From Escherichia coli (GTDB lineage: Bacteria; Pseudomonadota; Gammaproteobacteria; Enterobacterales; Enterobacteriaceae): a stretch of DNA of 64,000 nt. The position numbers and the translations under genes are program-made. This document shows, in pieces, positions 13,120 to 15,369 of the stretch (the stretch's first letter is position 1; the number at the start of each line of letters is the position of its first letter). Under the pieces are notes generated by a model. It ran no database searches, was not told the origin of the DNA, and worked only from the letters and a program-made list of their open reading frames with translations. The stretch lies in NCBI RefSeq assembly GCF_044647545.1, contig NZ_CP172818.1; one strand, given 5' to 3'.

Positions 13120-13712
13120 CCTTTTTCTTTTTAAACAAGGGGGGATAAAAGCAAAAAAAAAAAAAACAAAAAAAATTTTCTCCGCAAAAAAAACCAAAAA
13201 AAGCTCCTTTTCCAAAGAAGTTAAACGGAAAAAAAAAAAAAAAAAAAATTTTCAAAGGGGGGGAAGGACAACTCCCGGGAAAAAAAAAACCCGGGGGGGA
13301 AAAAATAATTTTTATTTCAAAAAAAAAAAAAACAAAAAAACTCGGGGGGGGGGGGGGGGGAAATACCCCAGAGAAAAATAAAAAAAAAAAAAAAAAAAAA
13401 AAAAAAAAACAGGAAAAAGCGCGAACCCCCAAAAAAAAAAAATTTTTTTTGGAGGATGGGGGGAAAAAAAAAAAAAACGGGGGGGGGTGGGCCGGGGGGG
13501 AGGGAAAAAAGAAAAAAAAAAAAAAGGAAGGGGCGGGGGGGGAAAAAAAAAAAACCCCGGCGAGAAAAAGGCGACCGTTAAAAAAAAAAAAAAAAAGGGG
13601 GACCTTTTTATTTGACGACAAAAAGAAGAAAAAAAAAAAAAAAAAAAAAAAAAAAAAATTTATTTTTTCCCGAAAAAAAAAAAAAAAACCCCACCCACCA
13701 CAGAAAAGGGGC
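13120..13712. repeat. homopolymer-rich low-complexity tract (long A, G and T runs); probable sequence/assembly artefact
   Basis: A-runs of about 30 nt (13381..13409, 13629..13658), a G-run of 17 nt (13334..13350) and many shorter runs; ORFs called here translate to poly-Phe or poly-Lys/Gly strings. Confidence 0.85.
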
Positions 13713-13713
13713 G

Positions 13714-15369
13714 CGATGGATCCGGCGGCGCAAACCACGCTGATTTAAAATCGAACCAGCCGAGGGTGTTCATACGTAGACCGCGCATACTGCGTTGCCC
13801 CTGAATGATCAGCCAGTGGTGGATAAGCGGCACCATTGCTTTGCTGGCGACCAGTTGCTGGCACCAGTTCGCCAGGTTCATTTCGCCATTGCGCCAGCGG
13901 GCGGCGTCGGCTTGCCAGTCGATGGGAAGACAGTGTTGGAGCAGCGGCACCTCGCACAAGTGCGCGAACAGCGAAAAATCCAGCGGCAGCGTAAAGTTGG
14001 CGCTGTTAAGCCAGATATCGCTCTCGATCTCTCCTTCATGCCACTGATCGTAGCTGATCTCTTTGATTTCCAGCGTGACCTGGTGACTTGCCAGAATCTG
14101 CTGCATGATCCCGGCAATCACTCGATGCTCAATATGATCCTGATAAAAGGTCAGGGTGAGGCTTTCCAGCCCGGCGGGTTTTTCGCAATGTGTCGGACGA
14201 GCATGGTGCCAACGGGGGAGCAGTCCATAAGCCGGGAACCACAGTTGCTGGTACTGTTCCTCAGCGAAATAGACCAGATTAGTTGGAGAAAGCACATAGC
14301 TTACCCAGTCCCTGACTTGCTGATTCGCCCCGCGATGGGTGCGGCTGTCGAACAGTAAATAGTAGCAACCTTCCTCCAGGCGGCTTTCAATCTCTTTTTC
14401 CTCGCCCTGTGGCCCTTTTAGCATCAGCCCTCCGGCTGGCTCGTCGGCAATTTCCGGCAGAACCCAGACGTTAACTTCGTCGATTAATGCCCGGTAACCG
14501 AAGAAGTCATCGAATGCCTGAATTTTCAGTTGATTGGTGCTGTTGCGGATCACCGCATACGGACCGGTGCCGATGGGATGGCTGGCAAAGTTACTGAGGG
14601 TTTCCCATTCGCGCGGCAGGATCATCGCCGGAACTTGCCCCAGCAGTAACGGCAACCAGCGATCCGGCTGCGTGAGGTGGATATCCAGCGTCCAGGGCGT
14701 CGGCGATACAATTTCAGCAATATGCGAATAGAGCGGCAGCGTATTGATCCGTTTTAAAGAGGCGATCACATCGTCCATTTCCAGTTCACGACCATGATGA
14801 AAATGGACTCCTGGACGCAAAAAGAAACGCCAGTGAAGCGGTGATATTTGCTGCCAGTGGTGGGCGATGTCTGCTTCCAGTTCCCCATTTTCCTCATTTA
14901 TGCGCGTTAGCGAACTGAAGATTTGCCGGGCGATATGGGTTTCGGAACGACGCAATGCACTGCCGGGCAGCAGATTACGCAACGGACGATAGTAGAGAAC
15001 GCGCAGGATGTGCCGCCCCTGGCGGAAGCTGCGTCCCAGATGAGAAACCAACATTTGCCGCACAGCCGCTTTGTCGCCAACCAGTTGCACCAGTTGATCG
15101 ATACGATCCTGCTCCAGCAGGTCTTCCGCCCGCTGTTGCTGAAGCGCCAGCCCGGTATAGAGGAATGTCAGACGCGAGCGTTTACCGCGCCCGACTTCCG
15201 CTTCCCACGTCAGCCAGCCGCGATCCTGCATGGTGTTGAGCAGGGTGCGCATATGACGACGCGAGCAACTCAGTAACGCTGCCAGTTCGTTGAGCGTGGT
15301 CTCCTGCGATTTACCCTCGCAGCATTGCCACAGGCGGATGAACTGTTGTTGCAGACGAGCAGATGGCAT
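13714..15369 (-). CDS. sgrR: sugar-phosphate stress transcriptional regulator SgrR; 3' end uncertain because the frame runs into the low-complexity tract
   Basis: Track ORF 13660..15390 (576 aa); start set at [15 protein letters not shown]; remembered length 551 aa would place the native stop near 13714, but here the frame continues ...[22 protein letters not shown] into homopolymer sequence. Confidence 0.8.

Follow-up and report, generated by a model that had tools for sequence, protein, structure and literature searches.

During glucose-phosphate stress, SgrR switches on sgrS, setA and alaC (PMC4021124). The SgrR of Escherichia coli K-12 (b0069, NP_414611.1) comprises 551 aa and ends with ...WFAPPDP, followed by TGA. 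In FDAARGOS_497 (NZ_CP033850.1), the complete genome closest to the DNA analysed here, SgrR is WP_022645171.1 with 552 aa, ending with ...WFAPPDPE and followed by TAG. The FDAARGOS_497 locus (L001) holds an island of about 1 kb (L001 1464-2473) in which espY2 is annotated at L001 1669-2238. Its insertion point lies exactly behind sgrR codon 551 (CCA) and in front of the TGA stop of K-12. The island supplies GAG TAG, and SgrR therefore has 552 aa (...PPDPE) in island-bearing strains. Of 5,426 complete genomes, 1,035 had a junction of the island type.

The window, that is, the whole stretch of 64,000 nt that was analysed, represents the E. coli thiQPB-sgrR-sgrS-leuDCBA ... fts/mur ... aceEF region. 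Its sgrR region shares 94.4% nucleotide identity with K-12. Residues 1-551 of the K-12 protein and of WP_022645171.1 are collinear with the window ORF, the domains SgrR_N and SBP_bac_5 follow in the same order and sgrS is divergent in all of them. In contrast to both proteins, the window ORF has no native stop, and 18 residues at its C-terminal end are non-native.

Genuine stop-loss alleles have the same formal outcome, with the stop removed and the frame open to the next in-frame stop. However, they keep natural, recognisable downstream DNA, whereas 588 nt are garbled in the window. Local failures of consensus formation or base-calling resemble the tract in being a deletion-dominated, base-biased and collinear decay of a known sequence with flawless flanks. 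As here, they are confined to a single record, create a false extended CDS and lose a neighbouring gene. Such failures are generally not tied to segments absent from K-12, and the tie observed in the window points to a reference-dependent step. The extended SgrR is very probably an artefact of a locally corrupted assembly consensus and not a property of the strain.

The sgrR reading frame and its C-terminal end

On the minus strand, the sgrR ORF extends from the ATG at 15369 (MPSARLQQQ) to the TAA at 13660-13662 and encodes 569 aa. A native stop of the K-12 type would lie at 13714-13716, and one of the island type 3 nt downstream in the coding direction. In the window, codon 552 at 13714-13716 is TCG (Ser), replacing E, and is followed by 17 more codons. 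The number of non-native C-terminal residues is accordingly 18, consisting of Ser552 and the 17 extra residues. The coding strand of the reference reads CCA GAG TAG CTCGCGCC and that of the window CCA TCG CGC C..., with 7 nt (GAGTAGC, comprising the final codon, the TAG stop and a further base) absent at 13716/13717. The junction sequence as deposited is CCATCGCGCC and the normal island stop context is CCAGAGTAG. The stop was lost because GAGTAGC is missing at the right edge of the low-complexity tract. With GAGTAGC removed, the ORF continues through garbled T, G and C runs to a chance TAA at 13660. The F5 stretch of the tail originates from minus-strand T-runs (T16).

A sequence-only reading of the window had proposed that sgrR passes its native stop, expected near 13714, and ends at 13660. 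Both positions agree with the frame and with the K-12-type stop given above. The assignment of the extension to homopolymer sequence was likewise correct, as T-runs encode F5 and 18 of the 19 long runs of the window lie within 13153-13688, a clustering far in excess of chance. The length of 551 codons from which that reading counted applies to K-12; it does not apply to the island lineage, in which SgrR natively comprises 552 aa (...PPDPE). Comparison with the 3' end of reference sgrR, where the proteins stop after ...PPDP or ...PPDPE, confirmed that the boundary had been rightly placed.

Domain content identified the gene. SgrR_N (PF12793), the winged-helix DNA-binding domain, was detected at residues 5-118 with E=1.5e-43 and 148 bits (Pfam cut-off 24). 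SBP_bac_5 (PF00496), solute-binding-protein family 5, was detected at residues 165-306 with E=2.6e-20 and 73 bits (Pfam cut-off 32.4). As required for SgrR, sgrS lies divergent from sgrR in the thiB-leuD interval, with the synteny of K-12 and FDAARGOS_497. The native SgrR C-terminus of 551-552 aa, ending in ...PPDP or ...PPDPE before the stop, was not present in the 569-aa window ORF. The gene is still filed as sgrR and the deviating C-terminus is attributed to sequence error. The features are listed in Table 1.

Table 1. Features of the sgrR locus, with positions in the 64-kb window
Feature	Position	Strand	Basis
TPP riboswitch (thiBPQ leader), intact, left landmark	12828..12927	-	Rfam RF00059, 66.1 bits
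Lineage-specific espY2 island without K-12 counterpart, holding the whole tract	12968..13715	.	No K-12 homology
Ramp into the tract, made up of 1-2 nt deletions	13080..13128	.	Comparison with NZ_CP033850.1
Low-complexity tract, very probably corrupted, 588 nt in place of 835 nt (reference locus L001 1639-2473)	13129..13716	.	Homopolymer runs and collinear alignment
Expected place of espY2 (T3SS effector, 189 aa in relatives), unreadable	13153..13533	+	Mapping by global alignment
Extension, very probably spurious: codon 552 E to S, 17 extra codons, TAA	13660..13716	-	GAGTAGC missing relative to the reference
Authentic sgrR, codons 1-551 (MPSARL...WFAPPDP)	13717..15369	-	0 mismatches to NZ_CP033850.1
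sgrS small RNA, confirming the identity of the locus	15437..15661	+	Rfam RF00534, 212.4 bits
Second corrupted patch	15648..15683	.	Six 1-2 nt deletions in 36 nt, no substitutions relative to the near-identical reference

The low-complexity tract as a degraded copy of the espY2 segment

Homopolymer runs of at least 8 nt were concentrated in the tract, and only one was located in the other 63.4 kb of the window. The runs of the tract include A30 twice, A20 and two A17/G17 runs, with a maximum of 30. In 136 kb of E. coli reference loci, covering the same region in two genomes, the longest homopolymer was 9. On the plus strand, 77% of the tract is purine. Runs of at least 4 nt hold 70% of its bases vs 10.5% in the reference segment. 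This composition is outside the natural range of the organism, as would be expected of an artefact. The right edge of the tract is sharp and the left edge is ramped. Compared with NZ_CP033850.1, the ramp shows seven deletion events and no mismatches, with the deletions at 13080, 13096, 13108, 13115, 13116, 13120 and 13121. Poly-F and poly-K ORFs of 41-207 aa, encoded by the tract throughout, occur on both strands at 13115-13748; they are meaningless products of the corrupted sequence.

Relatives identified by megablast among 5,426 complete E. coli genomes carry 835 nt at this place, comprising espY2, which encodes the T3SS effector of 189 aa, and the sgrR terminator region. Global alignment of the tract with these 835 nt revealed short recognisable blocks in the correct order over the whole length, including TTTTTATTTC, CGCGAA, CCGGCGAGAAAAAGGC and TATTTGACGAC. 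Collinearity was tested on uncompressed sequence with shuffled and block-shuffled controls. The interior alignment score reached z=13 against the mononucleotide-shuffled reference and z=10 against the block-shuffled reference. Reversed and reverse-complemented controls gave the background score. Alignment of the homopolymer-compressed tract and reference yielded z=1.6, compression discarding most of the signal. With z=10-13, the tract is recognisable as a decayed version of what belongs at its position, a further property of an artefact. The EspY2 protein itself had no meaningful tblastn match in window positions 12900-13800.

Relative to the reference segment, the tract shows 255 deletions, 8 insertions and 128 substitutions. 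A is the new base in 101 of the substitutions and G in 22. Of the reference bases, 85% of A and 28% of T were kept, and the tract agrees with only 54% of the reference positions. A-rich stretches became poly-A and G-rich stretches poly-G, as if the true sequence had been smoothed. Compared with the segment, the tract is short of 247 nt, and the missing bases are spread evenly, at 17-55 per 100 nt. On these counts, the error spectrum looks like a failure of signal or consensus, not like mutation.

Distribution among genomes and integrity of the surrounding sequence

A 102-nt junction probe matched 5,399 genomes and every match ended at 13716/13717. The tract side of the junction was covered in 0 of 5,426 complete E. 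coli genomes. The exact 569-aa protein is WP_400165109.1, which is named SgrR at NCBI and originates from one contig only. Its cluster has 15,431 members, and the other SgrR-named ones, among those listed, comprise 551-552 aa. With the junction in 0 of 5,426 genomes and the protein on 1 contig, the extension was not reproduced in independent assemblies, which again is typical of an artefact.

An identical complete RefSeq genome was not found, the best one reaching 99.5% over 87% of the query. Comparison with NZ_CP033850.1 gave 0 mismatches both in 13717-49087 (35 kb) and in 48185-64000 (15.8 kb). Judged from this comparison, the strain is essentially identical to FDAARGOS_497 here and the tract is a sharply local failure. 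Beyond the tract and its ramp, only three departures from FDAARGOS_497 were observed, namely at 15648-15683, 4031-4065 and 48330. The first of these, the second patch, covers the loop and stem of the SgrS terminator, the T-run and a filler of 40 nt that directly follows the leuD stop. Despite this patch, the Rfam score of SgrS is still 212 bits. In the ramp and the second patch, errors affect about 17% of the bases and all of them are deletions.

Two minor departures are located in REP sequences. Between araD and araA, a REP unit has the 35-nt sequence ACTCGAAAATTTATCGGTCAAAATGCATACCGCGC at 4031-4065 in place of 12 nt. Among 5,426 complete genomes, the full 105-nt query was matched at best with 82% identity and in two pieces. 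This oddity may represent a further consensus glitch, located where the REP copy number differs from that of K-12. At 48330, next to a K-12 indel, the REP between mutT and yacG has two extra bases, CC, that neither FDAARGOS_497 nor K-12 contains.

Possible origin of the corrupted sequence

Only two segments of the window, 12968-13715 and 15661-15693, are without K-12 homology. The tract lies within the first and stops at the right junction of the island, and the second patch overlaps the other. The REP oddities (4031-4065, 48330) are also situated at structural differences from K-12. Coincidence of the two patches with the non-K-12 segments is unlikely by chance, with a probability roughly estimated at below 1e-4. 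Since both patches are at non-K-12 segments, a reference- or backbone-dependent step is suggested. Among the artefact routes, corruption by a step relying on a reference or backbone without the island has about an even chance. For example, noisy reads might have been merged into a reference-guided or pile-up consensus, or polishing might have been unable to reach inserted sequence. Bases without a template would then be voted on out of register, the locally abundant bases would win and columns with a majority of gaps would be dropped.

When a majority pile-up without realignment was simulated over the true island in a toy model, 16-24 runs of at least 8 nt arose, with maxima of 25-33. Poly-G also appeared at the same G-rich spot. 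The simulation did not produce the T depletion (15% T observed vs about 30% simulated), the shrinkage of 26-30% (588 vs 835 nt for the tract, 749 vs 1,010 nt for the whole island) or the 115 clean bases at the left end of the island. Within the limits of such a model, it can be regarded as partial support for the proposed route.

A different route within the same class of artefact would start from an accurate short-read assembly in which one or very few low-quality long-read stretches bridged a coverage gap or dead end, with sgrR truly normal. The chance of such a bridge, left unrepaired by polishing, is put somewhat below even; it is comparably plausible to the reference-dependent route and leads to the same conclusion on sgrR. 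The density and deletion-only nature of the errors in the ramp and the second patch resemble raw long-read error, flawless surroundings are expected after short-read polishing, and the sharp right edge with a ramped left side is consistent with a bridge. However, a bridge offers no reason for both patches to lie exactly in the only two non-K-12 segments. Moreover, the island is only mildly AT-rich (36-49% GC per 100 nt), and a coverage dropout was not obviously to be expected there.

Readings in which the DNA itself has changed are far less probable. If the espY2 island had really been restructured in this strain, for example by partial deletion or rearrangement, the poor consensus would be a by-product and the sgrR stop might or might not be lost. 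Such a change would be in line with the 247 nt lacking from the tract and with the differences in accessory islands among strains. It is nevertheless very unlikely, as the missing bases do not form a single block, all parts of the segment are present in order and a real deletion makes no A30 or G17 runs. The least credible reading takes the tract as real DNA, in which a purine-rich homopolymer array replaced espY2 and a genuine 7-nt deletion gave SgrR a Phe-rich tail of 17 residues. Its presence in the deposited assembly and the CDS annotation are the only points in its favour. Against it stand the collinearity of the tract with normal sequence, the error-like spectrum, the junction found in 0 of 5,426 genomes and a second deletion-only patch 1.9 kb away. 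In replicating E. coli, homopolymers of 20-30 nt are highly unstable. Real DNA would require a collinear replacement, a spectrum of signal loss and the persistence of A30 in a replicating chromosome all together. If the tract were real, repeated slippage or non-templated synthesis would be a possible origin, and the Phe-rich tail could change how stable this regulator of glucose-phosphate stress is or how it responds to its signal.

Two facts speak against the artefact reading: the assembly passed NCBI processing and the protein was accepted into RefSeq. Under this reading and on the comparison with relatives, the true gene most likely ends with ...PPDPE before the stop, and the chromosome would carry a normal island with an intact espY2. 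The sequence-only reading had left two options for the extension. A real, aberrant hydrophobic tail found no support. A mis-assembled 3' end of sgrR was right with respect to an artefact, given the degraded collinear copy and its occurrence in 0 of 5,426 genomes; no wrong join was present, and 835 nt had instead collapsed to 588.

Several other explanations were rejected. Opposed low-quality read tails meeting in the middle of the tract do not match the A/G bias, which is on the same strand throughout. Foreign insertion of an IS, phage or retroelement is contradicted by the collinearity with the native island and the absence of coding capacity in the tract. A phase-variable homopolymer (contingency) tract would be one simple repeat inside a gene or directly before it, with normal flanks and a length that varies between strains; the window shows 18 separate runs of different bases over 588 nt, and none of them was present in the 5,426 complete genomes. 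A genuine stop-loss allele calls for a discrete stop mutation with natural homologous sequence downstream; the observed sequence showed a 54% match, 255 deletions and homopolymer runs.

Consequences for the annotation and side observations

The finding carries little biological weight and adds nothing to the biology of SgrR, but it matters for data hygiene. Through one corrupted patch of 588 nt, RefSeq gained a spurious entry, WP_400165109.1, in which an 'SgrR' bears a false tail. This patch also wiped the T3SS effector gene espY2 from the annotation of the genome, and the assembly would falsely score as espY2-negative. In the second patch, sgrS was altered at its 3' end. The errors would be passed on to analyses of gene presence/absence, virulence genes or pangenomes that use this assembly. 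Positions 13129-13716 and the ORFs touching the tract should be treated as unreliable. The restriction of both patches to segments absent from K-12 is of diagnostic use, as it hints that this assembly may be damaged at other lineage-specific insertions as well.

The source contig comprises 4,499,902 bp. Chromosomes of near-identical relatives have about 4.9-5.3 Mb, and the contig is about 0.5-0.7 Mb smaller. Its size is compatible with lineage-specific islands missing from the assembly. In this lineage, setA is absent between sgrS and leuD; K-12 has 1.26 kb there, and the filler at 15661-15693 is present instead. By annotation, sgrT is a frameshifted pseudogene in the identical relative (L001 4215-4345). 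With setA absent and sgrT frameshifted, two parts of the SgrR/SgrS stress module are missing or broken.
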